39,918 bases of DNA from a virus, in IMG/VR virus record IMGVR_UViG_3300017991_000034, positions 1 to 39,918 of that record, one strand, 5' to 3'. Position 1 is the first letter of the stretch. Every line of letters starts with the position of its first letter. A program made the position numbers and the translations under genes. A model generated the notes under the pieces. That model was given only the letters and a program-made list of their open reading frames with translations, made no database searches and was not told where the DNA came from. Below are positions 3,686 to 35,451 of the stretch, piece by piece.

Positions 3686-3714
3686 TATACGCTCCTAGAT
3701 ATGTTATTTATTAA

Positions 3715-10564: not shown

Positions 10565-12816
10565 TAAGATATCCTACCTTTCTGGGAAAGATTTAGAATA
10601 AACCCTTCAAGTTGAAAATCTGATTCTGCTATATCTGTGTCAAGCATTTGATCATCACTTAAAATTATATTTAATTGAATGCTATCACCTTCTGTTCCAA
10701 AATATACTCTATGCCATAAAAGTTGTTGATATTGTTCAAGAGGAACTAAATCATATGCTGATGTTTCTAATACATTATTTCCTACAATAGCTCCAGTTGC
10801 TATTCCATCTGTAACCATAGATATGTAAGAAGAAGAAGGTGTATAATCTACTGTAATTTCTCCATTAGTTGTTCTTTGAACTGCAAAATCTACACTATCT
10901 ATAGAGATATTAGTTCCAGTTTTAACATATGGGTTAAATCTTTTCGTTAAGATATCTATCCTAGAAACTCTAGATATTGTTCCTCCGCCAGTGTATGTTC
11001 CAGCAAAATTAGCTTCATATACTTGGATTGTATCTTCTGATGTAGCTGTAACTATATAGTTGTTGTCATTTATACCAGTTACTCCTTGGCAATTTGATAT
11101 TTTTATAAATGATCCGGTAAACAAGTTATGATCTATCACTGTTATAGTTACTATTCCAGCAGCTGCAGACATGTTTGTAATCTGAAGAGCTGACGCATTA
11201 GTGAAAATATTATTTGCTAGCTTAAATACAAATCCTTCTTGATTTCCAGCTATTACTTGTCGGAATTGTGCCTGTATTGTTCCGCTAGACCATGTAAATC
11301 CTGCAGAGTGCCAAGGAAGAGCAGAAGATGCCCATGTCCTACCTGTTTGTTGTTCGAAAAACCCAAAAGAGGTAATACTATCTTCATTGATAGCCCAGGT
11401 ACCATCTTTATAGTTATATACAAGAATAACATTAGGATATGTTTCCGCATATTGATCTGAATTAGAAGTTGAAAAAGTCCAATAAACATTTTCAGAATAA
11501 TAATCTCTAATTCCAGCCACTCTTTGCGGACCTTCATTATCGTTTCGTATTCTGAATACCAAATCTGGAATTTCACTATCAATTCTTTGGACGTTAGCTC
11601 CACTACAAGCATGTATACCAGTAGTTCCTATTGTGAGAATAGCCTTATCAAATGGAACAGAAGAAAAAGTTGATTCTGAACCTAGTTCTGTATTAATTTT
11701 TTGCCATATAAAAGGCTGTACTGCATTACCAGTATAGGCTAATTCCCATGTACTCTTTTCAAAATATACTATAAGCCTATCTTTAATAAACTCTGCTCCT
11801 ACTATTTGTTCTTTAGTAGAAGCATCTATCCAACCACCACCAGTAAATCCTGCCTGATTGGGTTCATAAAATGCGCTAGCAGCTAGCGGACTTCCATTAT
11901 GAGAGAATCTACATCTATTGGCATGCTGAGTATTAGTGCCAAGACCTCCACCGGCATCATTTTCAATTGTATTTAAAAGAATCAATCTATCCCTAAAAGG
12001 AAGAATAATCCTTGCAGACCTTACAAAATTAGCTCCCACTATAAAAGCAGGCTGAAATTGGGTCCATCCGGTTATACCAGTACCATCATAATACCACATT
12101 GGATCATCTGTAGCAGCTGCAGGAATACTAGCATTAAAATTAGAAGTAAATAAAATATTTACGTCTCCAGTAGCACCTCTCCAGTTAGCAGCCTGAAAGA
12201 ATTCTGAATCACTACCATTGAATTGGCTACCGGTAGTTGGACCAATTCGGTTCCAAAAACCACCAGAAAATTGATATGCAAATTGCGTATCAAATGCTAT
12301 AGCGGGATTACTATTTAATACGTCTGTTTCTACATTCCATAAACCCATTACAGGTTCAGCAGGATAGAAATATATTTGTGTTGTAGCAGGAGCACCATTA
12401 AAAACATATGCTCCACTAGTTGTGTCAAACGTATGAGTTGTAGCTCCCCCAGTTGTTAACATCGCAGCAGGTGTTCCTGTTTGATAGACGGTGAATATTT
12501 CATCGCCTATAGAAAAAAGCTGACCTACTTTAAATATATTTCCTGGAACGGTTCCTGTTGCAGCTCCAGCACCGTCAGTTATACCAACTGCAGATCCACC
12601 AGTAAGTGTTATCCGTAATCTTGAAAATAATTGCGCTGTAGCCGCAGATGTCCATCCGGTACCCGTACACACAGAACCAAAACGTTTACGTATTCTTCCT
12701 TCATACATATATGCATTAGTTAATTTTTCGAACGAATCCTCAGGAATTTGCCAAGATTTTAAATCTGTTCGTAGACCTTCTTTTATCGGAGCAATTAAAA
12801 AGCGATCTTTTGCCAT
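10564..12816 (-). CDS. Large tail protein (750 aa), possibly a tail tubular / nozzle-type protein; carries one copy of a small beta-barrel module
   Basis: ORF track. The N-terminus IKEGLRTDLKSWQIPEDSFEKLTNAYMYEGRIRKRFG resembles, from memory, T7 gp12-class N-termini. The module is GIVTITVIDHNLFTGSFIKISNCQGVTGINDNNYIVTATSEDTIQV. Confidence 0.4.
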   Translation of the reverse strand: MAKDRFLIAPIKEGLRTDLKSWQIPEDSFEKLTNAYMYEGRIRKRFGSVCTGTGWTSAATAQLFSRLRITLTGGSAVGITDGAGAATGTVPGNIFKVGQLFSIGDEIFTVYQTGTPAAMLTTGGATTHTFDTTSGAYVFNGAPATTQIYFYPAEPVMGLWNVETDVLNSNPAIAFDTQFAYQFSGGFWNRIGPTTGSQFNGSDSEFFQAANWRGATGDVNILFTSNFNASIPAAATDDPMWYYDGTGITGWTQFQPAFIVGANFVRSARIILPFRDRLILLNTIENDAGGGLGTNTQHANRCRFSHNGSPLAASAFYEPNQAGFTGGGWIDASTKEQIVGAEFIKDRLIVYFEKSTWELAYTGNAVQPFIWQKINTELGSESTFSSVPFDKAILTIGTTGIHACSGANVQRIDSEIPDLVFRIRNDNEGPQRVAGIRDYYSENVYWTFSTSNSDQYAETYPNVILVYNYKDGTWAINEDSITSFGFFEQQTGRTWASSALPWHSAGFTWSSGTIQAQFRQVIAGNQEGFVFKLANNIFTNASALQITNMSAAAGIVTITVIDHNLFTGSFIKISNCQGVTGINDNNYIVTATSEDTIQVYEANFAGTYTGGGTISRVSRIDILTKRFNPYVKTGTNISIDSVDFAVQRTTNGEITVDYTPSSSYISMVTDGIATGAIVGNNVLETSAYDLVPLEQYQQLLWHRVYFGTEGDSIQLNIILSDDQMLDTDIAESDFQLEGFILNLSQKGRIS

Positions 12817-15240: not shown

Positions 15241-16245
15241 CTAACCTATATCATAAGCAAAAGATTTGCCTGCACGCCATTTAATGGCATCACCAGATGT
15301 TCCACCTGGAGAACCAAGAGCAATAGCAGCATCAGAACTTGTGCCTAAGATCATTCCTATAAACCCTGTATTCAACGTTGAACTATCAGTATACAACCCA
15401 TCAGTTCCAACTGGAATCATTTGTGCATAATCTACTGGGGCTGCAGCTGGAAGAGGGAATGCAAATGCTGTATAGCCTGATGTATCTACTCCAATACTGA
15501 ATGTTGAAGCATCAATAGCTGTAACATCTACAAGTTGATCATTTAATTCTACCATTCCACAACTAACTGGAACTTTAATTCTTACTTTTTGACCTGTTGT
15601 TAAGCCATGGTCAACCAAAGTTGTTACTACACCAGGACTTGCTGCTGTAATATTAGCTATAACACGCTTTTTTGGATAGAACATGTCGTATACGGTTCTA
15701 TTTGGAGAAATATATCTATATGTTCCGTTAGCTCCTGCTATAACTCCAGGTGCTGTTGCTAATGTATTTGCAAGCCTGAAAGATGTATCCAATGTAACTG
15801 TATCAACTGAAAAATCTAAACCATTAAGACTTGTATGAGCAGTGTTCTGTATTCTAACAATGCTGCCAGCTACTAGTCTTCCTGTATCAGCTGTACTATA
15901 AACTGGTTGTGTAGCATTAGAACCAGCTGTGATAGCTACGGCTGCACCAGGAGTTTTATCTGTAGAATCTATTAAAGAGATGCCTCTATAGACAGCTCCA
16001 TTAAATCCTACTGCTGATGTTGATGTTGAAATAACTTGAGACGCTGCAGCATGAAAATCGTTTAATGCATCGTCTTGGTTCATACCTCTCTGCCAATACC
16101 ATCTAGTACTAGCCCATTGAGTAGAACCACCTATATTTGTAAGATTATATACTTCTACCCAATCTACATCAGATCTTAAAGGAATAATCTTATCAGTTCC
16201 ATCAGAACTAAAATATCCTTGTTGGTTAACTGTATTGTAAGCCAT
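15241..16245 (-). CDS. Capsid-associated protein (334 aa), possible decoration / head-fibre protein with two beta-barrel modules
   Basis: ORF track, with SD AAGGGA. It lies immediately downstream of the MCP. The modules are GRLVAGSIVRIQNTAHTSLNGLDFSVDTVTLDTSFRL and GVVTTLVDHGLTTGQKVRIKVPVSCGMVELNDQLVDVTAIDASTFSIGVDTSGYTAF. Confidence 0.45.
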   Translation of the reverse strand: MAYNTVNQQGYFSSDGTDKIIPLRSDVDWVEVYNLTNIGGSTQWASTRWYWQRGMNQDDALNDFHAAASQVISTSTSAVGFNGAVYRGISLIDSTDKTPGAAVAITAGSNATQPVYSTADTGRLVAGSIVRIQNTAHTSLNGLDFSVDTVTLDTSFRLANTLATAPGVIAGANGTYRYISPNRTVYDMFYPKKRVIANITAASPGVVTTLVDHGLTTGQKVRIKVPVSCGMVELNDQLVDVTAIDASTFSIGVDTSGYTAFAFPLPAAAPVDYAQMIPVGTDGLYTDSSTLNTGFIGMILGTSSDAAIALGSPGGTSGDAIKWRAGKSFAYDIG

Positions 16246-16258
16246 ATTAAATCCCTTT

Positions 16259-18454
16259 CTATGCTAATGTAGCTCTTAAATTGATAACCCATAAGTCATT
16301 GGTAATTCTAGGAACTTCCGCAAACTTATATCCGACTGAACAATTAAGAGCAAGAGGTCCATCATATATAGGTGGCCTATAGATAAAGCTTGCGCTATAT
16401 CCATCTTGTTCTATTGATGCATAAGCTTCCATACCAACACAGAAAATGTTATACACATCTTCTCCAAGGTTAGAAGCTGCTGCTGTATAAGATCCAATAG
16501 AGGATACCAAGAAACGTAAGTTTCCAATTGCACCCCATTCAGACCTTAAAGCATTCATAGGAGCTGGATATTGATTCTTTTGAATAAATCCAGCAACTGC
16601 TTCTAAGTTACCTGTCAGTTGAGTAGAACCGAGAGCAAAGTATGCATCACGTACTGGAGCTGTTCCAAACTTATCTTCACCTTCAATGTTATCCATAATT
16701 GTATAAGCATCGTTCGATAATAAAGTTCGTACAACTTCGTCAACATCGGCCCTCGTTATTTCTGTAGGGTTATCACCATTAACACCACTAGTACAGTTAA
16801 TAAACCCAGCTGTTGCTGCAAGCATATCACGTGTAAGTTGATCTTCTGTTTGCCTTTGTTACTCCTCAAAGAGGGGATATGTCATTTCTGCATATCTCAG
16901 GAACTTTCGTCTTCCTGCTCGGACTATCGCATCCCTTTCGGGTCTCTTCGTTTAGTCTCTCACGGTGGCCTACGCCTTCCGCCCTGTCACCATAGTTTTA
17001 ACCTTAGGCTTCCAAGTCCATTAGAAGAGATTTATACTCCGCCAAATTAACGGAGTGATACACCCAAACGCTTAGCTGCTTCATTTAAAACAGGATCTTG
17101 ATTCTGTAAAGTTCGATCTGTTACTTCTTTTGACTACTTTATATTTCAAAAGTAGCGGTGAGTCTTGTTATTCCTCACTCCCTATATTTCTATAGGGACC
17201 CGACTGTCGCTTCACCATTTGGTGTCCACTCGCCTCAGTCTGTCAGCGTGATATTTATTTCATTTTTAATATCTTCGCCCCTGTCACCCTCGACTTTACG
17301 TTAGGGCTTCCAAGTCAATCAGAGCGGATTTAAAGCAGGCAATTGCTTTACAAAATACAAGAAATTTCAAAGAACATTTAACGGCAGTACATATATACGC
17401 CTTTTTTATTTACCTGCTCGTTGATCTGTAAGTAGGTCGTTATTCAGATCAACTAATACGGCACCTACGCTATACCGTAGAAACTTATCTTGGCGTCTAT
17501 GTCAATCGCTGTGAGTGTTTGCGCTGGTGGAGTTACACCACTATTTCCTAGTGGAACCATTGCTGTATTAAGAGCGTTATACCTTCTCATACGAAGAGTT
17601 GTGCCGCCGTTCCTTGGCATAGTTTTCTTCATTGAGGGTATTTTGTGAATCATGTTGGGAGTTGGTACTGACAAAAGCTTTAAACTAAAACTTTGCTGAC
17701 TTTCTGTTACTTCAGGGTTACCTTCTACCCTTACTGACCATTATTAATGGCGGTTGGTCTTGTTATTCCCAACTCTTATAGTTTCCTATAAGATCGGACT
17801 ATCGCTTACGCTCTCGCGTTTTGAGGGCTTAGTCTCTGCGCCTACTTTATTACCATTGAACTCACGCATTTTTACATACATGTCTTCTCGGTAATTTAGC
17901 TCGTCTTTAGATAAACCTCTGTATCCTTGATTTGGTATTTCTTGTAAATGCCTACAAAAATCCAGTAAATGATAAGCTCTTGCTTTTTTTATCTTCAAAT
18001 AAGGAAGAACTTTTTTTAAAAATTCTGCAGTCTTAAATTTATTACGTAAATACCAATGATAAATAGGCTTACTATTAGGTCTATCTTTACGAGCGCCATT
18101 AAGCGTAATATTTCCATATTTTAAAATATCTTTTATAAAAGATACTGCTTCCAATTCTATCATAGCTATTTTAACACTAGGAATATAAGTAAAAGACCAT
18201 TGCTTAACATTTTTAGGAAATTTTAATGCTCGTACTGTAGTCCCATTACTAGTTTTTCTTTTGTGCTTTTCTATCATAAAACATCCATCAGCATCCATTA
18301 TTCCAGCAATATACGCCCAATGCGTTTGGCTCTGGTTATCATGCATTGATTCTAAATCAACGTTTAGACTTTCCAAGTAATCACCTCAAATTTTATACCG
18401 GCTCAACTATTCGTTAACCGGTGCAGGCAGTACCGTTGTTGTAGTTATAGGCAT
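16259..18454 (-). CDS. Major capsid protein (HK97-fold, N4-gp56-like), split gene with four exons: 18454..18417, 17738..17474, 17133..17050, 16852..16259. The spliced CDS is 981 nt (326 aa).
   Basis: SD AAGGAGG precedes the ATG at 18454. The exon peptides are MPITTTTVLPAP(V), SVRVEGNPEVTESQQSFSLKLLSVPTPNMIHKIPSMKKTMPRNGGTTLRMRRYNALNTAMVPLGNSGVTPPAQTLTAIDIDAKISFYG, SKEVTDRTLQNQDPVLNEAAKRLGVSLR and QTEDQLTRDMLAATAGF...RATLA. Joined, they read as one MCP. The ORFs at 17465..17674 and 16259..16825 are fragments of it. Confidence 0.8.
16853..17049 (-). mobile_element. Group I intron 3 in the MCP gene (ORF-less, ~197 nt)
   Basis: On the minus strand, P1 is CUCCGU|UAAUUUG-GCGGAG with a U.G wobble at the 5' splice site. 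P10 pairs UUUG with the exon start CAAA. The core contains ACUUGGAAGCCUAAGG. The P7 halves are GAGAGACUAAACG (plus 16951..16959) and GCGAUAGUCC (plus 16921..16930). The intron ends ...AAAGG|CAAACA. Confidence 0.75.
17134..17473 (-). mobile_element. Group I intron 2 in the MCP gene (ORF-less, ~340 nt)
   Basis: P1 is UACGGU|AUAGCGUAGGU-GCCGUA with a U.G wobble. The core contains ACUUGGAAGCCCUAACG. The P7 halves are ACAGACUGAGG (plus 17233..17244) and GCGACAGUCG (plus 17201..17210). The terminal hairpin CUACUUU...AAAGUAG ends in G just before exon 3. Confidence 0.75.
17739..18416 (-). mobile_element. Group I intron 1 in the MCP gene, carrying a LAGLIDADG homing endonuclease ORF (~678 nt)
   Basis: P1 is ACCGGU|UAACGAAUAGUUGA-GCCGGU with a U.G wobble. 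The core contains ACUUGGAAAGUCUAAACG. The P7 halves are CAGAGACUAAGCC (plus 17826..17838) and GCGAUAGUCC (plus 17796..17805). The 3' domain is homologous to intron 2. The 3' splice site among the adjacent Gs (17739/17738) was chosen to keep the reading frame. Confidence 0.7.
17786..18376 (-). CDS. Intron-encoded LAGLIDADG homing endonuclease (196 aa, TTG start)
   Basis: YIAGIMDADGCFMI is a LAGLIDADG motif. The TTG start is preceded by GAGGTGA-N4. The ORF begins inside the conserved ACUUGGAA core element, and its 3' end overlaps the P7 region. Confidence 0.8.
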   Translation of the reverse strand: MESLNVDLESMHDNQSQTHWAYIAGIMDADGCFMIEKHKRKTSNGTTVRALKFPKNVKQWSFTYIPSVKIAMIELEAVSFIKDILKYGNITLNGARKDRPNSKPIYHWYLRNKFKTAEFLKKVLPYLKIKKARAYHLLDFCRHLQEIPNQGYRGLSKDELNYREDMYVKMREFNGNKVGAETKPSKRESVSDSPIL

Positions 18455-23481: not shown

Positions 23482-24783
23482 TTACAAAGAAAGATAATCT
23501 TTTAAGAATTTAGTCCAGTAAGTATTTTTAGAAAAGTTAGTATTTAAGTACGAGTCATGAATATCCCTGGTTGGAAAATAAATAGATATGCCATTAGCAT
23601 TACATAATCCATGACACTTAACGTTCTTGATAATACTATCTTTTATAATAACAATACCTTTTCTTATTAGATACTCAAGAAGTACTATTCCGGTATTATT
23701 TTCTACACTATCTTCAATTATGGAGAAAGTTTCCAATAAGCTAGAATAGAAATGATACAAATCAATGTAATTCTTATTTATAAATGAAGTAGTTAGATTA
23801 TTGCTATTCCTTATAACCTTTAAAGCATTCATGTACATATTCTTGTCAGATCTTTCAAATAGAAGAATTAAAGCTTCGGCTATTTCATTTATATTAGCTT
23901 CTAATTTAACGTGGTTTTCAAGATCAATTGCCGAAAGCGTATATCCAATGTACGTATTTTGATAAGTATTTTTATATGAAGTAACTATATGTTTAGATAG
24001 ATCTTTTGGAGTAAAGGTTTGCGTTTTAAAGCTATCTAAAATCAAATCATACTTCCATCCTGTAGCAGGTTCTACTTCCTGAGAACCTATCATAATACTT
24101 ACAAAATCTTTTACCTGAGAGCCTATTTCTACCATAGACATAAAGCAGGCATCCATGCCTAAAATATCTAATTTCTTTCTATTTAATAAATTATTATAAA
24201 CTCTGTGCATGCAGCTATATAAATCATAATTCGTTAAATAGGTTTGGAAGACCTCATTAAATCCTATACCTTTGCTATCGACCAGCTTACGATTAAGTTC
24301 TATAAACCCAGTCTTTTTATTTAATATAAATATATCATGCGGATAACTAATACTAAGCTTGCCAAAAACATGTGGATCTTCTATACCAGATCCGTGATCC
24401 CATAAGATTAAAGCATTATGATGAGCAGGAAAGTTAGTTATAGCCCATTCTACAAATCTATAAAGATTTTCTTGCGTTCCGCTTGTACTTTGATAATTAT
24501 TAGACTGAACATCCAGTAAAACAGGAGCATCTTTATTAATTAAATACCTACAAGCTTCATTTTTTCCATGACTATCCACCTGAATCAAAATATTTACATT
24601 ATCATTAGACCCTACACTAATCATTTCATTAATATTTTTAACAGCAAAAGGTTCAAGGTCATTATTAGATACTAAATAAACTATGAAATTCCAATCCTTA
24701 ACTTGGGCCTTAGTGTCAGTAGCAAAAATTGAACAGTTAAATATAAATACTACAAATAATAAAATAGCTCTTAAAAAGACCAT
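23482..24783 (-). CDS. Secreted or signal-anchored clostripain-like (peptidase family C11) cysteine peptidase (433 aa from the ATG at 24783)
   Basis: SD AAGGAGG-N4-ATG at 24783. The hydrophobic N-terminus is FLRAILLFVVFIFNCSIFA. The His motif is NALILWDHGSG and the Cys motif is LDILGMDACFMSMVEIG, in the order and spacing typical of the C11 His/Cys dyad. Confidence 0.6.
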   Translation of the reverse strand: MVFLRAILLFVVFIFNCSIFATDTKAQVKDWNFIVYLVSNNDLEPFAVKNINEMISVGSNDNVNILIQVDSHGKNEACRYLINKDAPVLLDVQSNNYQSTSGTQENLYRFVEWAITNFPAHHNALILWDHGSGIEDPHVFGKLSISYPHDIFILNKKTGFIELNRKLVDSKGIGFNEVFQTYLTNYDLYSCMHRVYNNLLNRKKLDILGMDACFMSMVEIGSQVKDFVSIMIGSQEVEPATGWKYDLILDSFKTQTFTPKDLSKHIVTSYKNTYQNTYIGYTLSAIDLENHVKLEANINEIAEALILLFERSDKNMYMNALKVIRNSNNLTTSFINKNYIDLYHFYSSLLETFSIIEDSVENNTGIVLLEYLIRKGIVIIKDSIIKNVKCHGLCNANGISIYFPTRDIHDSYLNTNFSKNTYWTKFLKDYLSL

Positions 24784-24806
24784 AAAGCCTCCTTTACCAC
24801 CAAATA

Positions 24807-24989
24807 TCAATCACTAATCTTATCCAAAGGGACACTAATATCTACATCCACATCTACAATATCACTATCAATATCAACCTCATAAGTAACAGTATTCTCC
24901 TTTTTATCATGCTTAAAAGATGTATCCATAGTACACCCGCAATAAAAACTTATATAAAAAAGACAAAAAAATAGAAACCATTTATTCAT
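24807..24989 (-). CDS. Small secreted or lipoprotein-like protein (60 aa) with an acidic mature part
   Basis: Strong SD GGGAGG. The N-terminus is MNKWFLFFCLFYISFYCGC (signal-like, Cys after Gly; the lipobox is not canonical). Confidence 0.5.
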   Translation of the reverse strand: MNKWFLFFCLFYISFYCGCTMDTSFKHDKKENTVTYEVDIDSDIVDVDVDISVPLDKISD

Positions 24990-27030: not shown

Positions 27031-30000
27031 CTACCTGAAAAAAGAAGGAATATCTTCATCTCCGTATACAGCAGATCTATATCTCTTCTCAAGTTCTTCG
27101 GCCGATAGACCATCTCTTGTCTTTGGTAATGAAATACATAAGTATCTGAGAGCGTCACAATTAGAAACAAGATACCCGTTAATATAATAACAGTTGTCTC
27201 TTTCAACTGTTAAATCGTATACCTCTTTTGGTGTATCTACTTGATATAATTCCACACTTCTTACCACATGTTTTCTTGATAGAATATTTATTACATTCAA
27301 ACTCTTTATTGCAAATAATACAAAGCCTTTTTTCAAAATCGAGACGAGCCAGGACCCTGGACTTAGTCTTACATTTATTGCTGCAGTATTTTTGCCAAGC
27401 CTGTTTCCCTTGGTACTCCTTTTTGCAAACAACACAAGTTTTCTTGTATTTAATATTCCTACAAGACGGGAGAGAAGTTTGAGCATGCTCCTTATGCCAG
27501 CGCCTTCCTTCTTCGCTACAATGCCATTCTTTAGCTTTCGCGTTTTGTGAACGCAACAAGTTTTTACATTCGTCTGATTGACTCCAAGAACCTGGCCTGG
27601 TTGCATGCCTATGCCCGTGCTCAAATCTCGTAAGCAGCTCAAGGTTTGATATCTCATTATTTTTGGCATTTCCGTCCCTGTGATGAACGACGTAGCCTTT
27701 CGGTATAGGGCCTTTATTTTTCTCCCAAATGTGTCTTTGAAGTGTAGTATGCACGCTTTTACCCGCATAAGAAGTTCCATTACTCTGGAACATTCTTCCT
27801 GAGCCCCCCATGTAGTATTTTGAGGCATTCCATCTATAAATGTACCCATTAAACATGACTTGTTTCTCGTCTTCAGAGATAAGATAGTCTTCTTGAATCC
27901 TTTTGAATCTTGTTCCGCGATATAATATCCAAATATCTTTTTCCATAAATAGTTCCTAAATTTACTAAATGGTTCCAATATGTCACCATATCGCAAACTA
28001 TCAGCATAAGTCAATCCTTCTTGAGTAAATATTTGATGCTCTGGAGTACATTTTATTTTTTTGTTTATTAAACACAACTTTCTTGCATATCTTTTATGTT
28101 TTTTTAAAACTTTTCTTATACCTAAAGGTGTTATAACTTCATCACCTTCCCGTATATCTTTAATAGCTATATTTCCGGATGGAGTTAAAACTTGCATCTC
28201 ACCAGTAAAACAAAAATGGCTGTAAATATCATGAAGCGGCCTAGGCTTATAAACCTTCTTCTTAGAGTCGTATTCTTGCCTATAGTTATTTATGGCTTTA
28301 ATTAACGACTGACATTTAGTTTCATCAATCCATATCTTAGAGAAAGCAGAGCGAACGGATTCTATGCCATCTTCAATAGAAATACTAGGAGCAACCGTAA
28401 ATTTTATTCCTAAATTCTTAGCTTTTTCTAGTCTGGTCATACCTGAACCAAATTCTTTTACTTTAATATCATGAGGAGCTATATGCTTACCATAGATATA
28501 GTCTTTTTGAGCTAAGATTTTAACGTAGTGCTCTAGACCTTCTTTATTTTTTTCATAGCAGTCTATAATTCTTACTGTTTGCCCTATTGTCTGAAAGAAA
28601 ATGATACATGTTGAATCTCTTACTCCTAGATCCCAAGCAGTATGAACTTTAAATCCTGGCTCATAAGGAACCATCCCCAGTTGATTGTTAAGTTTCATCT
28701 TGTCTAAATACTTAGCGTAATAAGCACCCTCAACACCTAAGCTAAACGAACAGTAGTATTCCTGTTGAATTAGATCTTCAGACATCAATCCTTCTTCTCG
28801 TTCCTTTTCTATTTCTCTATAGGGAATATGTCTTGTATCTTCAAGGGTAAGATGATAGGCGAACCAATCTGGGCTATTCTTGGCCACTTGATACAGTTCC
28901 CAGAAGTTGTTCTTGCCACGAGGCGTATTGTGACTAATAAAGCCGTTACTGAAGAAGGAGTGCGTGGATGGTATGACGAAATCGTACACTTCGGATTCTG
29001 ATGCTTCAATAGATTGAACAGGAGAATAAAATAAATTCTCTTTAATTAAGGATTTTAAATACACACTATCATATTTTATTATCAATTTTTTTATTAATCT
29101 ACGAGATATGCGTGACGCATTAGCTATTTCTTTTTTTAAATACTTAAAGTCTAATTTTGAAGGATTTACTGGGTAAACGTTTCCAGATTCTTTTTTAACA
29201 TTGTTAGGAATAAACTTACAGTTTACCTGTTTTCTTTTTAATCTAAATCCTATTTGCGTATAAAATATGTGTGCAAAATATCCAGTTATTTCTAGGTTAT
29301 AAATTGTACTATGCGCCTTCACTTTTTTAGTAGGCTCTTTCTCTTCCTTTCTGATAGAAGATGCTATTCCGAAGTTTAATAAAACTATTTGAAGGTCTCG
29401 AATAAATTTCTTACACGCAGATGTAATCTTTATATATCCACACTTAGAAGGATTTGAATTACTTGTGCCGTCGCCATCAAAAAGACCTTGTAAGAACGCT
29501 TTCAGCTGGGCTCTAGTACATTCAAATAATTTATCTGGAAATGTTTTATTTTTAGCACCATGCCTAAATCCAAGCCATTCCAAAAGTAAACAAAATGTTC
29601 GCGAATTAAAGTTATGGTGTATACCATCTTTAAAAGTAGTAAATCTATTAGAGCGTAAGAATTTTATTATTTCAGGATCTTTTTTATTGGTAATAGTTAC
29701 CTTATTTTTATCGTAGCTTCCATCGGCATGAATAAGACCCAAAAGATAAAAGAAGTCTTTGTCACACGCTCTATCTTCTATTTCCCACCCAGAATGCGGA
29801 TGCTCCTTATGCTTAAACTTAGAAAAATACAATCCTTTTCCAAATACATTCTGTCCATATTGCACTGGAAATAAATCACCTACTTTAATATCAGAGGACT
29901 TCATCCACTCACAACCATTCCATAATGGATGTACAGGAGTACATTCTATTTCGTAACCAGAAGAAAGTTTTATTTTTAAAGTATTCTGATTACCACCAAA

Positions 30001-30633
30001 ATAAAAATCCGTAGCTTTGTTAAAACCATTCAAACCAAAAATAGGTTCATTTAGAGAAGAATATTCTTCTCTTGAATTAGATACCTTACTAATCCTTTTT
30101 AACCCATTTTCTGTTATCACTAATGTATTAGGAGAAACACACGAAATAAAAAGCGCCCATCCATCATTTGCTGCAAGAATAGGACGTATAAATTGATAAG
30201 CGCGTGGATCCTGTATTGCATACTCAGAAAATACGCACCCATAAGGGTTTGAGCCTACAAGGCTATCAATATTATCTGAACCAATAAGCTGTAAGATAGA
30301 CCCGTTAATAAAAGAAATCTTCATTTCCTGCGAATTCTTAGACATTATAAGCTCGTCTGGAATGAAGTCTGTAAACTTTTGACCCGAATTCGTAATTGAG
30401 TCCCAGATTACCTTCTTAGCTTGAGAGTATGTTGGGAATATATAATAGACAATGCAAATTTTCTTAATGCATTGTCTTATAGCTAAATTCCATGCAACAA
30501 TATCTTTACCTGCCCTTCTTGGCATAACTACAAGAATCTTTTTATATTCTTTGTTCTCTAGGGCATCAACTATTGGAATTTGGTATTTTCTTGGAGAAAA
30601 TTTATTTAATACTCTTCTTGTCTGATAGTTCAT
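27031..30633 (-). CDS. terL: Terminase large subunit precursor (1200 aa) containing two inteins; the mature extein product is about 444 aa
   Basis: Extein motifs: Walker A VVMPRRAGKD, Walker B GCVFSEYA, coupling motif ALFIS|TPRGKN, nuclease motifs HTAWDLGVRDST, IAPHD and YSHF|CDALRY. Confidence 0.9.
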   Translation of the reverse strand: MNYQTRRVLNKFSPRKYQIPIVDALENKEYKKILVVMPRRAGKDIVAWNLAIRQCIKKICIVYYIFPTYSQAKKVIWDSITNSGQKFTDFIPDELIMSKNSQEMKISFINGSILQLIGSDNIDSLVGSNPYGCVFSEYAIQDPRAYQFIRPILAANDGWALFISCVSPNTLVITENGLKRISKVSNSREEYSSLNEPIFGLNGFNKATDFYFGGNQNTLKIKLSSGYEIECTPVHPLWNGCEWMKSSDIKVGDLFPVQYGQNVFGKGLYFSKFKHKEHPHSGWEIEDRACDKDFFYLLGLIHADGSYDKNKVTITNKKDPEIIKFLRSNRFTTFKDGIHHNFNSRTFCLLLEWLGFRHGAKNKTFPDKLFECTRAQLKAFLQGLFDGDGTSNSNPSKCGYIKITSACKKFIRDLQIVLLNFGIASSIRKEEKEPTKKVKAHSTIYNLEITGYFAHIFYTQIGFRLKRKQVNCKFIPNNVKKESGNVYPVNPSKLDFKYLKKEIANASRISRRLIKKLIIKYDSVYLKSLIKENLFYSPVQSIEASESEVYDFVIPSTHSFFSNGFISHNTPRGKNNFWELYQVAKNSPDWFAYHLTLEDTRHIPYREIEKEREEGLMSEDLIQQEYYCSFSLGVEGAYYAKYLDKMKLNNQLGMVPYEPGFKVHTAWDLGVRDSTCIIFFQTIGQTVRIIDCYEKNKEGLEHYVKILAQKDYIYGKHIAPHDIKVKEFGSGMTRLEKAKNLGIKFTVAPSISIEDGIESVRSAFSKIWIDETKCQSLIKAINNYRQEYDSKKKVYKPRPLHDIYSHFCFTGEMQVLTPSGNIAIKDIREGDEVITPLGIRKVLKKHKRYARKLCLINKKIKCTPEHQIFTQEGLTYADSLRYGDILEPFSKFRNYLWKKIFGYYIAEQDSKGFKKTILSLKTRNKSCLMGTFIDGMPQNTTWGAQEECSRVMELLMRVKACILHFKDTFGRKIKALYRKATSFITGTEMPKIMRYQTLSCLRDLSTGIGMQPGQVLGVNQTNVKTCCVHKTRKLKNGIVAKKEGAGIRSMLKLLSRLVGILNTRKLVLFAKRSTKGNRLGKNTAAINVRLSPGSWLVSILKKGFVLFAIKSLNVINILSRKHVVRSVELYQVDTPKEVYDLTVERDNCYYINGYLVSNCDALRYLCISLPKTRDGLSAEELEKRYRSAVYGDEDIPSFFR
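27160..28212 (-). mobile_element. Intein 2 in TerL (351 aa, residues C808-N1158): a mini-intein scaffold whose linker is overprinted by an out-of-frame HNH gene
   Basis: It starts CFTGEMQVLTP. Block B is KCTPEHQIF. The C-terminal blocks are EVYDLTVERDNCYYINGYLVSN followed by +1 Cys. The penultimate residue is Ser, not His. It is inserted in the nuclease motif SHF/CDALRY. Confidence 0.75.
27203..27946 (-). CDS. HNH homing endonuclease (247 aa) encoded in the -1 (+2) frame inside intein 2
   Basis: It has its own AGGA-N7-ATG. The HNH motif is GYVVHHRDGNAKNNEISNLELLTRFEHGHRH. Two C-terminal zinc ribbons (CVVCKKEY...YCSNKC; CIICNKEF...TCGKKC) resemble those of the 7613..8443 HNH. Confidence 0.8.
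   Translation of the reverse strand: MEKDIWILYRGTRFKRIQEDYLISEDEKQVMFNGYIYRWNASKYYMGGSGRMFQSNGTSYAGKSVHTTLQRHIWEKNKGPIPKGYVVHHRDGNAKNNEISNLELLTRFEHGHRHATRPGSWSQSDECKNLLRSQNAKAKEWHCSEEGRRWHKEHAQTSLPSCRNIKYKKTCVVCKKEYQGKQAWQKYCSNKCKTKSRVLARLDFEKRLCIICNKEFECNKYSIKKTCGKKCGIISSRYTKRGIRFNS
28927..30141 (-). mobile_element. Intein 1 in TerL (405 aa, residues C165-N569) with a LAGLIDADG endonuclease domain
   Basis: It starts CVSPNTLV. Block B is CTPVHPLW. The LAGLIDADG motifs are LLGLIHADGS and LQGLFDGDGT. It ends FISHN followed by +1 Thr. It is inserted inside the ATPase coupling motif (IS/TP). Codons were checked at both junctions. Confidence 0.85.
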
Positions 30634-31576: not shown

Positions 31577-31995
31577 TACGCCTCCTCAATTGGTTCTTGA
31601 TCTATTTCTTTAATATTAATTTTAACTCTAGGGATTTGGGAATACATCTTGGATGATAATATTTTACATACTATTGAGTCATCTTTGTAAACGATACCTG
31701 TCATGCAATCTAATATAAACTTTAGAAGGTTATCTAGGTCGCTTTTGGATGTATGATACAGCCCTTTCTTTTTTGCTAATGCCTTAGTCTTTGGTATTGG
31801 AAGGTAGAATTCTGCGGTTAAAAAAGTTGGCTTAGTAAACATATCTAGTTCTTCATCCATAAATGCTTGTTTAATAAGATACCTAAAAAAGTGACGAATT
31901 TTGTATTGTGGGTCGTAGCATTTGCTGTAATTATGTCTATGTCTAGCTTGGGGCACTGGTTTTTCTAGTATGGTAAACATAAATTCTTGGTTCAT
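31576..31995 (-). CDS. rusA: RusA-family Holliday junction resolvase (139 aa)
   Basis: EKPVPQARHR..., then HTSKSDLDNLLKFILDCMTGIVYKDDSIVCKILSSKMY, which matches the RusA acidic catalytic motif pattern. Confidence 0.75.
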   Translation of the reverse strand: MNQEFMFTILEKPVPQARHRHNYSKCYDPQYKIRHFFRYLIKQAFMDEELDMFTKPTFLTAEFYLPIPKTKALAKKKGLYHTSKSDLDNLLKFILDCMTGIVYKDDSIVCKILSSKMYSQIPRVKINIKEIDQEPIEEA

Positions 31996-33392
31996 ATAAA
32001 TTTACACCGTTTAGCATAAGCGAGAAAGTTCTCTTCCCCTATTAATTTAATAAAGTCCTCGTTAATTTTGGGTGAATCGTTTTGTATTATTTTGTTTTCT
32101 TTTTTGGGTTCTGGTTTATATTCCCTGAATGGATATTTTGAACGTTCATATTCTAGTTGTTCTTTTTCTGCTTGTATCTGTTTGCTGGCAGAGAAATATT
32201 TATTTTTGTAATGCATACATCTGTTTATGACCCATTGATAAGTTATTGTTTTGTTGAAGCTGTTTTTAATGTCGGTTCTAACCTGTATTAATATCTCTTC
32301 ACCAAATGATTGTATCTTCTCTAGCTGTGATTGGTTTAATTTTTCTATCATACTATCTCCAGGAGAGGCTTCCAGTTCTACTGGGAGTTTATTATATCTA
32401 AATCCTTTTTGCAATATCCACTTTAGATATAAGGTTTGCAAGTTATTAGCATTTAATCTTATCAATTTATCTTGATATTTTTGAAGAGAGTTAAAAGTTT
32501 TTTTACCATTAAAGAAAGCATGCGCTATTATTTTTTCTTTTTTAGATAATATTTTATATTCATGCTCTATACAGAACCTAAGATCTACGCACTTCCTTTT
32601 TTGGGTATCTTCGAACCAATCATTTACTGAATCTATCTCTTTAAGGGTGTTATAATCATTTACTTCCTGTATGTTACCAGGATGTTCTTGTGTAAATATA
32701 GAATCCAGGTGCTCTACAGGCAGAGTGGTGGTAGGCTCTTGTGTTAAATTCTTACTTATTTTAGAAATTTCGTAATTATATTCTCCGAAGAAGGTCATAC
32801 TATTACTTCGTATAGACTTATTACTAGTAATATTAACTTTATAATTAAGATTAAGAGAAGTAAGTGCCCAAAAAGTAATAAAGAGAGGAACTAGAGCCAT
32901 TATCCGTTGACATAAAACATGAGATTTTGGTAGATGTTTTGTTATAAATTTGAAATCTTCTAGTAGATTTCCATCTAAAGAATAATCACAAGTCTTAGAC
33001 TTAAAAGTATTAGTTTCTAGGTTAACTACATCCCAACCCCTACTCTTTTTATTAACTAAGTTACAATCCCTTAATTTATTTGTGGCTGTTATTACAGTAT
33101 TTCTACAACAACCTACTGCACTAGACAACCACTTATGCGATGGAGTTATCTTCTTAGCTTTATATCTGTTAAACATGGAAAAGAACGTGTTCAAGAGGCT
33201 TATGTGCTTACTTGTCAATAAAGAAAGTTTATTAAAAAGATTCTTAGCCTTTAATTCGGCTTGAAGCTTTAAAGTTTTTTTAATAGAAAATTCAGAAAGT
33301 ACCGGATTAAAAAGATTTTCTGTTCTTTTTTCTTGACAGTTTATGAGGAGTTGCGTAATATGAGTTTCTAAGTTTGTTGTAAATTTTTGCAT
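31992..33392 (-). CDS. Replication-initiator-like / DNA-binding protein (466 aa), function uncertain
   Basis: ORF track. The HTH-like segment is LSSAVGCCRNTVITATNKLRDCNLV. It sits in the early operon next to RusA. Its SD is poor. Confidence 0.35.
   Translation of the reverse strand: MQKFTTNLETHITQLLINCQEKRTENLFNPVLSEFSIKKTLKLQAELKAKNLFNKLSLLTSKHISLLNTFFSMFNRYKAKKITPSHKWLSSAVGCCRNTVITATNKLRDCNLVNKKSRGWDVVNLETNTFKSKTCDYSLDGNLLEDFKFITKHLPKSHVLCQRIMALVPLFITFWALTSLNLNYKVNITSNKSIRSNSMTFFGEYNYEISKISKNLTQEPTTTLPVEHLDSIFTQEHPGNIQEVNDYNTLKEIDSVNDWFEDTQKRKCVDLRFCIEHEYKILSKKEKIIAHAFFNGKKTFNSLQKYQDKLIRLNANNLQTLYLKWILQKGFRYNKLPVELEASPGDSMIEKLNQSQLEKIQSFGEEILIQVRTDIKNSFNKTITYQWVINRCMHYKNKYFSASKQIQAEKEQLEYERSKYPFREYKPEPKKENKIIQNDSPKINEDFIKLIGEENFLAYAKRCKFI
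33333..33361 (+). promoter_or_regulatory. Antisense sigma70-like promoter inside the 5' end of the 466-aa gene
   Basis: TTGACA-N17-TAATAT on the plus strand. Confidence 0.5.
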
Positions 33393-33446
33393 GGTAACTT
33401 AAATTTACAAAAAAATTGACGGTCTGTAAAGGCCGTCTTTTTTTTT
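33368..33446 (+). ncRNA. Predicted ~80-nt cis-antisense RNA A covering the start codon and leader of the 466-aa gene
   Basis: It runs from the promoter at 33333..33361 to an intrinsic terminator at 33418..33446. The terminator has an 8-bp stem GACGGUCU-GUAA-AGGCCGUC followed by 9 U. The ends are approximate. Confidence 0.4.
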
Positions 33447-33589
33447 GTTTGTTTATTATCTGGGTTTAAATTAATAAGTTTATTATTAGAAATTCTAGAT
33501 TGAGATATATCGGTTTTAAAAGAATTTTCTTCTTTTTCTTTTCTTTTCTCTTGACAGTTTCTTAAATATATTTTAAGATATTTTATCAT
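33368..33589 (-). CDS. Questionable basic ORF (73 aa) whose N-terminus duplicates residues ~17-33 of the 466-aa protein
   Basis: SD AGGA-N6-ATG. LRNCQEKRKEKEENSFKT compares with LINCQEKRTENLFNPV. However, the bidirectional terminator lies inside its 3' part. Confidence 0.3.
   Translation of the reverse strand: MIKYLKIYLRNCQEKRKEKEENSFKTDISQSRISNNKLINLNPDNKQTKKKTAFTDRQFFCKFKLPCKNLQQT
33418..33446. terminator. Bidirectional intrinsic terminator (A-tract, stem with GNRA loop, T-tract) 25 nt upstream of the 466-aa start
   Basis: On the plus strand the stem is followed by T9. On the minus strand the same stem is followed by AAUUUUUUU. Confidence 0.6.
33551..33579 (+). promoter_or_regulatory. Second copy of the antisense promoter module
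   Basis: TTGACA-N17-TAAGAT. The ~45 bp upstream (cggttttaaaagaattttcttc...ctcTTGACAgttt) is homologous to 33302..33342. Confidence 0.5.
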
Positions 33590-33710
33590 CTTGATCCTAA
33601 TTTAGATGGTTTAAGGTTTTTATGTGATTCAAGCTATATAAAGACCTTATAGAAATTATGCGGTTTTGTAAAAACTTAGAAATAGGTTTTTATAGAACCG
33701 CACTTTTTTC
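33586..33710 (+). ncRNA. Predicted ~125-nt antisense / intergenic RNA B
   Basis: It runs from the promoter at 33551..33579 to a long hairpin at 33659..33702 (about 17 bp including G.U pairs) followed by CUUUUUUC. No credible plus-strand CDS lies in between. The ends are approximate. Confidence 0.35.
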
Positions 33711-33759
33711 TTTATTAATTATCGACATTTTAGTAGGTACAACAAGAGTACATAAGATT

Positions 33760-33790
33760 CCCCTGGATTTAAGTCCGGGGGTTTTTTATT
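33760..33790 (+). terminator. Strong plus-strand intrinsic terminator abutting the stop of the minus-strand HTH gene
   Basis: CCCCUGGA-UUUAAG-UCCGGGGG followed by UUUUUUAUUU. There is no U-tract on the minus strand. Confidence 0.65.
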
Positions 33791-33971
33791 TCTGTTTGCT
33801 TTGCTTAGCTTCTTCTAATAGTTTTTCTAGAACTTTTATATCATAGATTCTTATCTTGGTAATTGGATGAACTTCCGGTACTAACTTACCAGATTTATGC
33901 CAATTCCTTAAAGTTGCCTTAGATACACCTAAAAACTCTGCTGCCTTGTGAATTAATACTTTATCTTTCAT
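33786..33971 (-). CDS. Small MerR/excisionase-type HTH DNA-binding protein (61 aa), first gene of the leftward early operon
   Basis: SD AGAGG. AAEFLGVSKATLRNWHKSGKLVPEVHPITKIRIYDIKVLEKLL matches the excisionase/MerR-type HTH pattern. Confidence 0.7.
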   Translation of the reverse strand: MKDKVLIHKAAEFLGVSKATLRNWHKSGKLVPEVHPITKIRIYDIKVLEKLLEEAKQSKQK

Positions 33972-33987
33972 AATTACCTCTTTTATG

Positions 33988-34015
33988 TTGACAATATTTA
34001 TAACTTTAATATACT
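33988..34015 (+). promoter_or_regulatory. Rightward early promoter
   Basis: TTGACA-N16-TATACT. Its -10 box overlaps the -10 box of the leftward promoter. Confidence 0.5.
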
Positions 34016-34036
34016 ATATATATACTTTAATTACAA
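34008..34036 (-). promoter_or_regulatory. Leftward early promoter
   Basis: On the minus strand TTGTAA-N17-TATATT. Confidence 0.45.
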
Positions 34037-34064
34037 CAAAATATGAGAAAGTAAGAGTTTTAGT

Positions 34065-34301
34065 ATGTTTAGGATAGCAAGAAAAGGTACGAATCCTGAT
34101 TTGATTAAATACTTAAGTAAAATATCTAAATATGATCCACCTCATAAGTATTCAAAGTTGGTTAGTATTTACTTAGAAAGTCATTACATGAATATTTGTA
34201 AAAATACGCCATCCAAAATAGAATCAGAAATAAAAAAGTTTTTTCCGGAAATGATTATTTTTTTTAAGGAGATTCATGAAAGATTCGATAAAAGAAACTA
34301 A
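34065..34301 (+). CDS. Hypothetical early protein (78 aa)
   Basis: ORF track. It is the first gene of the rightward operon and overlaps the ERF start. Confidence 0.45.
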   Translation: MFRIARKGTNPDLIKYLSKISKYDPPHKYSKLVSIYLESHYMNICKNTPSKIESEIKKFFPEMIIFFKEIHERFDKRN

Positions 34302-35067
34302 CGCTAAACTAAGCGAACGAGAATCGTTTTTAGACCAACTTAATTCACTTAGGGCCCTAGAGTCTTATGTAAGTGAAAGAGTTGTAGCTACCCTGAAGTC
34401 TATCCCTGAGGATAAGTATGAATCTGATGATACTAAAGAGATTAATATAGCTCTTTCAAAAGCGCAGGGAGAATTTCCTTCTATTGGTTACAATAAGGAG
34501 AATCCATACTTTAAAAATAAATATACTGATCTTGATAGCATAGTAAAAGCTATTAGGCCTGCTCTTAATAAGAACGGCTTATCTATAACTCATCAAACTA
34601 TTATTACTAAAGAAGGTATGACCGTACTTAGGTCTAGAGTTAGGCATAATTCTGGTCAATGGATAGAAACTAGAGCAAGAATTATTCCTACAAAATCAGA
34701 TCCTCAAAGCTATGCAAGCGCTCTTACATACATGAAAAGATATTCCCTTATGGCATTAATTAATGTTACAACAAGTGATGATATATCAGATGATGATGCT
34801 GAAAGAAATATGTATACTCTAAGAGATACAAAAGCTAAAGGCGTAGCTTTAAACACTAAATATAACCCTAAAGATCAAGCTTCTGATGTTATAACAAAAG
34901 AACAACTAGAAGAACTTGAGTATGAGCTTGGCGAATATGATGATATAGCTGAAATGGTATTAGATGGATTAAAGCTTCAATCTCTTGCAGATATGCCTAA
35001 AAATAAATACTTATCAGCAGTTAAAAGAATTAGAGAAATAAAAAATGCTAGAGATGGTGTAAATTAG
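34276..35067 (+). CDS. erf: ERF-family single-strand annealing recombinase (263 aa)
   Basis: SD AAGGAG. ALSKAQGEFPSIGYNKENPYFKNKYTDLDSIVKAIRPALNKNGLSITHQ...YASALTYMKRYSLMALINV matches the ERF family pattern. Confidence 0.8.
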   Translation: MKDSIKETNAKLSERESFLDQLNSLRALESYVSERVVATLKSIPEDKYESDDTKEINIALSKAQGEFPSIGYNKENPYFKNKYTDLDSIVKAIRPALNKNGLSITHQTIITKEGMTVLRSRVRHNSGQWIETRARIIPTKSDPQSYASALTYMKRYSLMALINVTTSDDISDDDAERNMYTLRDTKAKGVALNTKYNPKDQASDVITKEQLEELEYELGEYDDIAEMVLDGLKLQSLADMPKNKYLSAVKRIREIKNARDGVN

Positions 35068-35154: not shown

Positions 35155-35451
35155 ATGTCCAATTATTACTCAAAGGTTAAACATCTTAAATATGCATCTC
35201 TTGAACAGGTAACACGATATAAAAAAATGAAAAAAAATTCTCTTGGATACATTCTAAATAAGATATTTAAAGCTACTATAATCATCATAGTAGTTATTTT
35301 ATTAATTCAGAAATTAAATGAATTGTTAAATAAAGATCAGATAATTTTAGTTAAAGAATCAGAAATAGTCACAGTCCCAAATAAAAAAAAGGGACCAGCT
35401 GCTTTTAAAACTGGCCCCCATCTTCAAGGAGAGAAGGATGAGAGACTATAA
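35155..35451 (+). CDS. Single-pass membrane protein (98 aa)
   Basis: SD GAGGGA. The TM segment is FKATIIIIVVILLIQKL. Its 3' end overlaps the convergent fibre gene by 6 nt. Confidence 0.5.
   Translation: MSNYYSKVKHLKYASLEQVTRYKKMKKNSLGYILNKIFKATIIIIVVILLIQKLNELLNKDQIILVKESEIVTVPNKKKGPAAFKTGPHLQGEKDERL

Follow-up and report, generated by a model that had tools for sequence, protein, structure and literature searches.

Two tandem cassettes of ~130 base pairs (bp) at the 5′ end of the leading gene of an uncultured phage, each with two predicted promoters that face one another, probably control that gene through antisense RNAs; we put the probability of this reading at about 0.7. The phage is represented by IMG/VR record IMGVR_UViG_3300017991_000034, and the window analysed here, a stretch of 39,918 nucleotides (nt), covers nearly the whole of a 39.9-kb metagenomic contig (ENA ERZ27256773 k141_1862467). 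Its minus strand carries nearly all of its genes, and the gene in question, which encodes a protein of 466 amino acids (aa), stands first in a long leftward gene train. A preliminary description of the region, made from the sequence alone, had proposed that two promoter-terminator units on the plus strand encode cis-antisense RNAs, one covering the start of the 466-aa gene and the other that of a 73-aa open reading frame (ORF) upstream of it, and conservation in relatives, covariation and codon constraint now support this proposal. The features of the target gene and of the two units are as follows:

31992..33392, minus strand: 466-aa gene, at the head of the long leftward gene train; start codon 33392..33390, without a Shine-Dalgarno sequence
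33303..33344, plus strand: module 1, a T/A-rich upstream (UP-like) segment with the -35 hexamer of the first antisense promoter (P_as1), within codons 17-30 of the 466-aa gene; direct repeat with 33511-33562
33333..33361, plus strand: P_as1, TTGACA-N17-TAATAT, with a predicted transcription start at ~33368-33370
33368..33446, plus strand: predicted antisense RNA 1, ~79 nt, complementary to codons 1-8, the start codon and the upstream region of the 466-aa gene
33370..33417, plus strand: stem-loop 1 of antisense RNA 1, an inverted repeat (88% complementary) with arms at 33370-33386 and 33401-33417 and the loop at 33387-33400
33418..33446, plus strand: terminator T1, an 8-bp stem, GUAA loop and 9 U (GACGGTCT-GTAA-AGGCCGTC followed by 9 T)
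33511..33562, plus strand: module 2, a copy of module 1 (upstream segment and -35)
33551..33579, plus strand: second antisense promoter, P_as2, TTGACA-N17-TAAGAT, with a predicted transcription start at ~33586
33586..33710, plus strand: predicted RNA 2, ~125 nt, with hairpins at 33586-33609 and 33612-33649, then T2 at 33659-33702 and a U-tract
33659-33710, plus strand: terminator T2, a 20-pair hairpin followed by CTTTTTT

The near-consensus plus-strand promoters that the preliminary description had reported at 33333 and 33551 are present as stated, its three terminators (33418..33446, 33659..33710 and 33760..33790) all lie where it had placed them, and the ORF list confirms that the region holds no plus-strand protein gene. 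The start codon (33390-33392) has its complement, CAU, in the loop of stem-loop 1, while RNA 2 is antisense to the start codon, Shine-Dalgarno sequence and leader of the 73-aa upstream ORF, beginning ~4 nt inside it. The two modules, already recognised as homologous, are direct repeats that match in one block at 93% (33316-33342 vs 33534-33560) and in another at 82% (33303-33319 vs 33511-33527), and their duplication does copy the N-terminal codons of the 466-aa gene into the 73-aa ORF. Between the two blocks lies a 10-nt insertion or deletion (indel), split into 9 + 1 nt, and the DNA similarity persists past the resulting frame shift, which argues for selection on the DNA rather than on the protein. 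That the 73-aa ORF might instead be a conserved protein, and the similarity purely coding, had been considered from the outset; a protein search with it returned the query only, the peptide is unconserved beyond the part that it shares with the N-terminus of the target, and the similarity crosses the frame shift.

As a class, promoter-like hits are not enriched (20 vs 18.1 expected). A perfect TTGACA with an acceptable -10 occurs at six sites in the 39.9 kb, three of them within 33333-34015 and all three on the plus strand; likewise, three of the four hairpins with a long uninterrupted T-run in the window are the plus-strand ones of this region, and terminator-like sites between 32000 and 35500 number 6 vs 1.1 expected. 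The decisive argument against chance, as we see it, is the conservation of the arrangement in relatives.

An exhaustive HMMER search collected 29 homologues of the 466-aa protein, at ~30% identity; a word-index protein search with the same sequence had returned the query itself only. We compared 13 loci, namely those on the contigs of 11 homologues, one found later (L091; relatives are given L numbers where they must be told apart) and the window. Two further contigs, L001 and L002, carry this same phage with 100% identity in the region and are hence uninformative. Since MAFFT misaligned the promoter of the window, an ATG-anchored ungapped comparison and a covariance-model alignment were used. 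Of the 12 loci from relatives, 8 of the ones that include upstream sequence show the same order of a small helix-turn-helix (HTH) gene, a gap and the rep-like gene (the homologue of the 466-aa gene); the gap measures 180-530 nt in relatives, and the Erf side lies beyond the small HTH gene in most of them.

The antisense promoter, in the form TTGAC(A/T)-N17-TAnnnT, is found opposite the first 7-20 codons in all 13 loci. In seven relatives (L003, L005, L007, L008, L009, L010 and L012) its -35 begins at +48 and its -10 ends at +20, the promoters of L008 and L012 having been read from the sequence, as their -10, TAAGTT, falls below the scan threshold; in the window and in L013 the promoter sits at +60 / +32. 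A hairpin and then a T-run follow at -21 to -52 in 9-10 of the 13 loci. In the window and eight relatives, the antisense RNAs are predicted to be 68-81 nt long and to fold into two stem-loops with CAU in the first loop, as part of CAU(G)AUAC; relatives keep the loop sequence CAUGAUAC. The more distant locus L015 has an antisense TTGACA-17-TATCAT over its start codon, yet no nearby terminator, and its 530-nt gap (2454-2985) holds imperfect direct repeats (GGTTAAGTGGTTCATAT... / GGATTAAGTCGTTCATAT...) with an iteron-like look.

The promoter is also reflected in the codons that it overlaps. In 12 of 12 members the Ser/Cys-Gln codons read AGT/TGT CAA, which on the opposite strand spells the -35: where the first residue is Ser, its codon is AGT in 10/10 members (vs 25% of the Ser codons elsewhere in these genes), in the remaining two it is Cys, whose TGT codon yields TTGACA, and Gln is encoded by CAA in 12/12 (vs 67% elsewhere). 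Several homologues align from residue 1-6 and have in common the motif (S/C)-Q-(V/E)-K, behind which the sequence is rich in lysine and of low complexity; given the synonymous choice of AGT and CAA, we regard this protein motif as largely a shadow of the promoter. The converse would be that there is no RNA function at all, the S/C-Q-V/E-K peptide being conserved for the sake of the protein, module 2 being a neutral partial duplication and the hexamers being accidental. This is very improbable in our view: AGT in 10/10 members is not demanded by the protein, the peptide segment is predicted to be disordered (residues 21-35 of the 466-aa protein have a predicted local distance difference test score, pLDDT, of <50 in a structure model), the similarity of the modules crosses a frame-shifting indel, and compensatory change has preserved the terminator hairpins, which are non-coding and have their U-tracts solely on the antisense side, even if promoter-like hexamers occur at chance frequency in this A/T-rich genome, the module does copy N-terminal codons, and the duplication is recent and unstable in some lineages.

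The evidence for a conserved RNA fold comes from a covariance model, R1, built from six relatives with the window excluded. It matches the window at 33380-33444 with 50.6 bits (E-value, E, 1.4e-7) and at 33612-33708 with 29.8 bits (E 0.002), the latter match marking RNA 2 as a diverged paralogue, and it also finds units outside its training set in L009, L013, L014 and L091. Over 15 aligned units, paired cells amount to 87.5%, compared with 67% after shuffling and 36-55% when the partners are slid, and compensatory changes are seen in 18 of 20 pairs, in 8/9 for the helix of stem-loop 1 and 10/11 for that of the terminator; these helix counts were made on a model-fitted alignment, in which pairing is somewhat inflated. 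The covariation score of 0.54 (0.20 when shuffled) was reached by 0 of 500 shuffles. The helices are strand-specific, with G·U outnumbering A·C cells by 26 to 2, and the folds are stronger on the plus strand: RNA 1 folds at -23.8 kcal/mol (z -4.68; minus strand -15.9) and RNA 2 at -45.2 kcal/mol (z -9.05; minus strand -24.4). Both observations indicate that the structured molecule is the antisense RNA and not the mRNA, and on these grounds a structure of the sense strand (mRNA) was rejected as the conserved element.

A hairpin followed by 6-9 T in 10 positions is present on the antisense side of 12 of the 14 units, while the sense-side tails of relatives hold 3-6 scattered T of 10 and no run. 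The sole sense-side run is that of T1 in the window, which on the minus strand is followed by AATTTTTTTG, with 7 consecutive T, and is thus formally bidirectional. The suggestion that T1 is bidirectional and might serve as an attenuator of the 466-aa gene consequently holds as far as the T-runs on both sides in the window are concerned and does not extend to the relatives, whose T-run is on the antisense side only; an attenuator role would be lineage-specific at best. Beside these folds we note a perfect 11-nt complementarity between the 5′ end of RNA 1 (33365-33375) and the apical part of the terminator hairpin of RNA 2 (33672-33682), which could allow the two RNAs to pair and of which ~0.5 such matches are expected by chance in the region.

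At the gathering threshold, Rfam, whose families include sar, CopA, RNA-OUT, C4, OOP and FopS, gave no match for the region. The highest-scoring match below threshold, to FopS (RF04319; 30 bits vs a threshold of 56, E 0.017), is absent from the relatives and was rejected; FopS RNAs form an unrelated class of trans-acting small RNAs of Bacteroides with a single-stranded 5′ seed (PMC11697453). A DNA pattern scan of viral and genome collections, filtered with the covariance model, kept L019, L072 and L091, the remainder being mostly chance matches, with a marginal covariance-model match in L087 (E 0.059). The same scan returned no convincing match in bacterial genomes, nor a host, and a stricter pattern in metagenomes retrieved the same phages only. 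Judged by sequence, the units appear to form a small new family of phage cis-antisense RNA genes with about a dozen members, all of them from uncultured phages.

The antisense terminator encloses, in addition, a conserved candidate promoter for the target gene, which the preliminary description overlooked:

33402..33430, minus strand: candidate sense promoter P_rep, TTTACA (33430..33425)-N17-TAAATT (33407..33402)

The -10 of P_rep ends 9 nt before the ATG, and an A (33395) lies 7 nt downstream of it, 3 nt before the ATG. Nine members share, at fixed positions of the sense strand, the pattern T(T/A/G)(G/T)(A/C)CA-N17-TAnnnT-N6-A-2 nt-ATG, with TAnnnT in 9/9 and with 5-6 of 6 consensus positions in the -35 in 7 of the 8 complete cases; in L013 the -10 ends 6 nt before the ATG, whose own A takes the 7th position. 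The sense -35 coincides with the top and loop of the antisense terminator, where TGT(C/A)(T/A/C)A (antisense strand) is constant while the stems vary, and the sense -10 falls within the 3′ arm of stem-loop 1, where its first T, second A and sixth T are invariant, the bases between them (positions 3-5) changing in step with those that they pair with in the helix. No Shine-Dalgarno sequence precedes the 466-aa gene or any of its homologues, although AGGAG-type sites are found at most genes of the phage. We infer that P_rep is a real promoter and that its mRNA is nearly leaderless, with a leader of ~3 nt. The predicted sense and antisense starts are convergent and 16-28 bp apart, with an overlap of ~28 nt in the window.

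The cassette is tandemly duplicated in six genomes (the window, L003, L009, L010, L014/L072 and L091), at a spacing of 156-232 bp and with 78-92% identity between the copies within a genome; the second cassette is absent from L005, L007 and L013. Cassette 2 of the window (33511-33710) keeps the promoter, a hairpin resembling stem-loop 1 (33612-33649), the linker UAGAAAUU and the terminator, and appears from its sequence to be an old, diverged duplicate. It is overlain by two elements of the minus strand:

33644..33672, minus strand: candidate second sense promoter, TTTACA (33672..33667)-N17-TAAGGT (33649..33644), inside T2 and the second hairpin of RNA 2, upstream of the 73-codon ORF
33368..33589, minus strand: 73-codon upstream ORF with an AGGA Shine-Dalgarno sequence at 33598..33595; starts in cassette 2 and crosses T1

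A loop-encoded -35 with N17 and TAnnnT can be read by eye in the second cassettes of L003, L009, L010 and L091 as well, and a second sense promoter in cassette 2 would fit these readings. The 73-codon ORF stops 25 nt inside the 466-aa gene. A bridging upstream ORF of this kind, with its stop at -13 to +24 from the ATG of the target, is found in 6/6 two-cassette genomes and 0/3 single-cassette ones; two of the stops form ATGA overlaps, and two others are the TAA of the sense -10. When the non-duplicated part is shuffled, the chance of the ORF staying open is 0.017-0.37 per genome (0.02 for the window), with a product of 4e-8, and the remaining two frames across the bridging region contain 2-11 stops. 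Selection thus probably acts on the fact that the upstream ORF is translated rather than on the peptide that it yields, and this translation is probably part of the mechanism.

The number of cassettes varies even between near-identical phages: L072 (3337-3941) has three and L014 (1851-2267) two tandem 232-bp cassettes in front of the same rep-like protein (P0014), which implies that cassette number shifts on very short evolutionary time scales. Tandem repeats of 160-230 bp where a putative initiator gene begins, differing in copy number between L014 (2) and L072 (3), set in AT-rich surroundings and accompanied by weak RepL and HTH_36 similarity, might also be expected of a replication origin at which the repeats bind the winged-helix protein and short transcripts activate the origin or prime synthesis, as in the transcriptional activation of ori-lambda or with the primer RNAs of plasmids. 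We consider such an origin unlikely here, as conservation falls on promoter hexamers and RNA helices, whereas iterons are usually ~20 bp long and closely spaced, as the 26:2 ratio of G·U to A·C and the compensatory changes speak for selection on an RNA fold and not on a double-stranded binding site, and as three members have a single cassette.

Upstream of the cassettes, the leftward gene order is the 61-aa gene (33971..33786), a 393-nt gap, the 466-aa gene (33392..31992), rusA, and the packaging and structural genes. The far end of the gap is marked by two further features:

33760..33790, plus strand: terminator T3, CCCCTGGAT-TTAA-GTCCGGGGG followed by TTTTTT (33760-33787); 9-bp stem with 6 G-C pairs
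33786..33971, minus strand: gene of the 61-aa MerR/HTH_17 (excisionase-like) DNA-binding protein, syntenic in most relatives

T3, a predicted plus-strand back-stop, abuts the stop codon of the 61-aa gene and has no T-run on the minus strand; equivalent terminators stand beside the small HTH gene in L003 and L007. The 61-aa HTH protein itself is a candidate regulator of the switch. Beyond it, a near-consensus rightward promoter, TTGACA-16-TATACT at 33988 (+), is predicted to drive three genes, those of a 78-aa protein, of Erf and of a 98-aa protein. At 33988-34036 this promoter stands back-to-back with a candidate promoter of the 61-aa gene (TTGTAA-17-TATATT, minus strand), the -10 hexamers overlapping at 34008-34015, and this may be a second site where the two directions of transcription exclude each other.

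The rightward operon of L009 and L091 has a third promoter in front of it, one homologous to those of the antisense RNAs, that would drive it. In L009 (480-665, locus minus strand) it reads TTGACC-17-TAGGAT and is followed by a strong hairpin with T9 and, directly after that, by GAGGAG, the ribosome-binding site of the operon's first gene; this arrangement suggests control of the operon by attenuation or antitermination. One could accordingly take all of these units for promoter-proximal, terminated leader cassettes, in which antiterminator-dependent read-through past T1, T2 and T3 controls rightward early or late transcription and not the leftward gene, comparable to lambda P_R'-tR'/Q and the put RNAs of HK022. 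Besides the third promoter on the Erf side in L009 and L091 and the hairpin with its T-run before the ribosome-binding site in L009, the array promoters share sequence around the -35 and spacer that could be a factor-loading site. In the window, however, polymerases that read through would first make just a transcript antisense to the 61-aa gene, and the operon that they then reach is already served by a near-consensus promoter at 33988; neither the fixed placing of stem-loop 1 over the start codon nor the bridging ORFs would have a role, and no antiterminator homologue was found among the proteins of the window. We hold control of rightward transcription to be an improbable function of these cassettes; it, the origin and the absence of any RNA function each explain less of the evidence than the antisense model.

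For the antisense model we propose the following course of events. P_as1, a strong host-type promoter opposite codons 11-20, would make the ~79-nt RNA 1, whose stem-loop 1 would present the complement of the start codon and whose stem-loop 2 would be a Rho-independent terminator, while the weaker P_rep would fire leftward and start the mRNA ~3 nt before the ATG, which lacks a Shine-Dalgarno sequence. Repression could then take two modes: with starts so near each other, polymerase at P_as1 would occlude, or collide with, polymerase at P_rep, and loop 1 of RNA 1 would pair with the 5′-terminal AUG region of the mRNA and block ribosome binding, in the way of IS10 RNA-OUT. On longer leftward transcripts the gene would probably be translated by coupling to the 73-codon ORF, under the control of RNA 2, as in the CopA/tap/repA system of plasmid R1, and T3 would shield the 61-aa gene from plus-strand read-through. 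Candidates for flipping the switch would be the 61-aa HTH protein, the target protein itself and a product of the rightward operon.

More tentatively, the cassette might be a self-contained bidirectional switch of ~130 bp that serves five functions in one stretch, overlaying the N-terminal codons of the target, the strong antisense promoter, the antisense RNA, whose loop would pair with the very first nucleotides of a leaderless mRNA, its terminator and, inside the terminator, the promoter of the target. The leftward gene train extends over ~32 kb (recombination, packaging and structural genes) and no strong internal terminators were seen in it, so the switch could act as an early-to-late gate. 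Its copy number (1-3) might tune the delay, and the bridging ORF might provide a second, separately antisense-controlled route. We regard this extension as possible, though doubtful.

The antisense model as a whole has to be weighed against several opposing points. Transcription is predicted from sequence in all members, and the direction of regulation, the leaderless start and the translational coupling are extrapolated from the conserved features. Three members depart from the common layout, L005 and L004 with distant or weak terminators and L015 with none nearby; the match of RNA 2 to R1 is weak (E 0.002), and the inflation of pairing by the model-fitted alignment bears on the helix counts. 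The sense -35 of L010 agrees with the consensus at 3/6 positions only, and the conservation of P_rep may be structural, as the same bases form RNA helices. The duplication could be neutral recombination noise, as the overlaps of the second units and the copy number both vary. Finally, the name of replication initiator, which the preliminary description had given to the target in the form 'replication-initiator-like', is plausible on a weak basis of sub-threshold matches.

Those matches are to winged-helix families, with HTH_36 in 11 of 16 members, HTH_Crp_2 in 10 of 16 and RepL in 7 of 16 (best RepL E 7e-5). All of them lie below threshold. A Foldseek search likewise gave generic winged-helix matches (CodY, MarR; E ~2e-3), with a structure model of mean pLDDT 66.6; the 466-aa protein has no sequence match in the PDB, and no initiator fold could be assigned from the model. 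We regard it as a probable winged-helix DNA binder and a putative replication initiator or early regulator.

Elements of the proposed mechanism are familiar from several systems. The antisense RNA of IS10 is, according to Kittle, Simons and Kleckner, reportedly a stable stem-loop RNA with a loop region that faces the 5′ end of the mRNA. This RNA-OUT is 69 nt long, with 35 nt complementary to the translation start, arises from one of two convergent promoters and blocks ribosome binding (PMC5006887). Like pOUT and pIN of IS10, the promoters described here converge at a distance of tens of bp, and the antisense RNA, at ~70 nt, covers the 5′ end and start of the mRNA; in contrast to IS10, there is no relation in sequence or in Rfam, the target is a phage early gene and not a transposase, lacks a Shine-Dalgarno sequence and is probably near-leaderless, the overlap is 16-28 nt and not 35, the terminator holds the -35 of the target, and the cassette is duplicated. 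For phage P22, Liao, Wu and Susskind are said to have placed, in 1987, the sar promoter in or next to the 5′ end of its target, downstream of the gene of a small DNA-binding regulator, with an RNA that covers the translation start of the target. The order of a small HTH gene, a gap and the target is the same as in immI of P22 (arc, ant); Rfam, however, has no sar match here, the target is a winged-helix protein and not an antirepressor, and there are in addition a second RNA paralogous to the first, an upstream ORF that bridges to the target and a candidate promoter for a leaderless mRNA. The phage itself is unrelated to P22 except in its portal.

In the plasmid systems CopA/CopT-tap-repA of R1 and Inc RNA-repY-repZ of ColIb-P9, an antisense RNA covers the start of a leader ORF that ends beside the start codon of a rep gene or overlaps it, the rep gene lacking a good ribosome-binding site. 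With these (IncFII, IncI) the cassettes share an antisense RNA of two to three stem-loops and a leader ORF that stops at the start of a gene without a Shine-Dalgarno sequence. They differ in that the leader ORF exists only in two-cassette genomes and has an N-terminus paralogous to that of the target, that a second antisense RNA lies directly on the start of the target, and that the target is here a putative initiator. In phages 186 (pR/pL) and P2 (Pe/Pc), promoters of unequal strength stand face to face and give overlapping transcripts of divergently regulated gene sets. The phage described here resembles these switches in having convergent promoters of unequal strength, with overlapping predicted transcripts, at the boundary of two gene sets, and interference between them is plausible; it departs from 186 in the distance between the starts (16-28 bp vs 62 bp), and from both in that the strong promoter makes just a terminated small RNA and no operon. 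The general principle of transcriptional interference is treated in PMC5001618.

With regard to the phage as a whole, no DNA similarity to 31900-34400 was found in isolated phages, a tblastn search of phage genomes with the 466-aa protein gave zero matches, and the portal is at most 25% identical to that of any isolate, all of which suggests a phage without a close cultured relative. The window encodes a P22-type portal, an intein-bearing large terminase, Erf, RusA, several HNH nucleases and a clostripain-like peptidase; a repressor or an integrase was not identified among its proteins, and it holds no tRNA or tmRNA. L014, by contrast, has a tRNA gene (3645-3717, plus strand; 66.7 bits) immediately after its rep-like gene. 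The large terminase of the window (27031-30633, minus strand; 1200 aa) apparently contains two inteins (two Intein_splicing matches and a LAGLIDADG homing endonuclease), and intein-bearing terminases are also found in L009 and L015. Between the portal and terminase region, a 442-aa protein of the clostripain family (Peptidase_C11, E 8.6e-41) is encoded at 23482-24810 on the minus strand; L010 has a clostripain-family gene too, adjoining its rep-like gene, which is uncommon cargo for a small phage.

Two proteins of the structural region (10564-12816 and 15241-16245, minus strand) match the FCCH domain of the ubiquitin-activating enzyme E1, one above the Pfam threshold (35.9 vs 29.5 bits) and the other slightly under it (26.1). 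Two HNH homing-type endonuclease genes, at 7613-8443 on the otherwise almost empty plus strand and at 17786-18376 on the minus strand, are likewise set among the structural genes. The only strong minus-strand terminator of the window, at 35390-35419, lies between the convergent genes of the 98-aa protein and of an 863-aa tail-fibre-like protein; it has an 11-bp stem followed by T8, with an A-run on the other side, and is probably bidirectional.

The class of mechanism is classical, comprising antisense control of a start site, convergent promoters and leader-peptide coupling, and the advance lies in a well-supported instance of it, not in a new principle. To our knowledge, few phage antisense RNAs have covariation support. 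Codons, two opposing promoters, RNA structure and a terminator are packed into the same 130 bp, with consequences visible in the protein as a disordered, lysine-rich N-terminal peptide and in the gene as a frozen AGT-CAA codon pair, and a cassette so compact could be reused as a synthetic switch. If confirmed, the cassettes would represent a new family of phage regulatory RNAs outside Rfam, in a lineage without a cultured relative.

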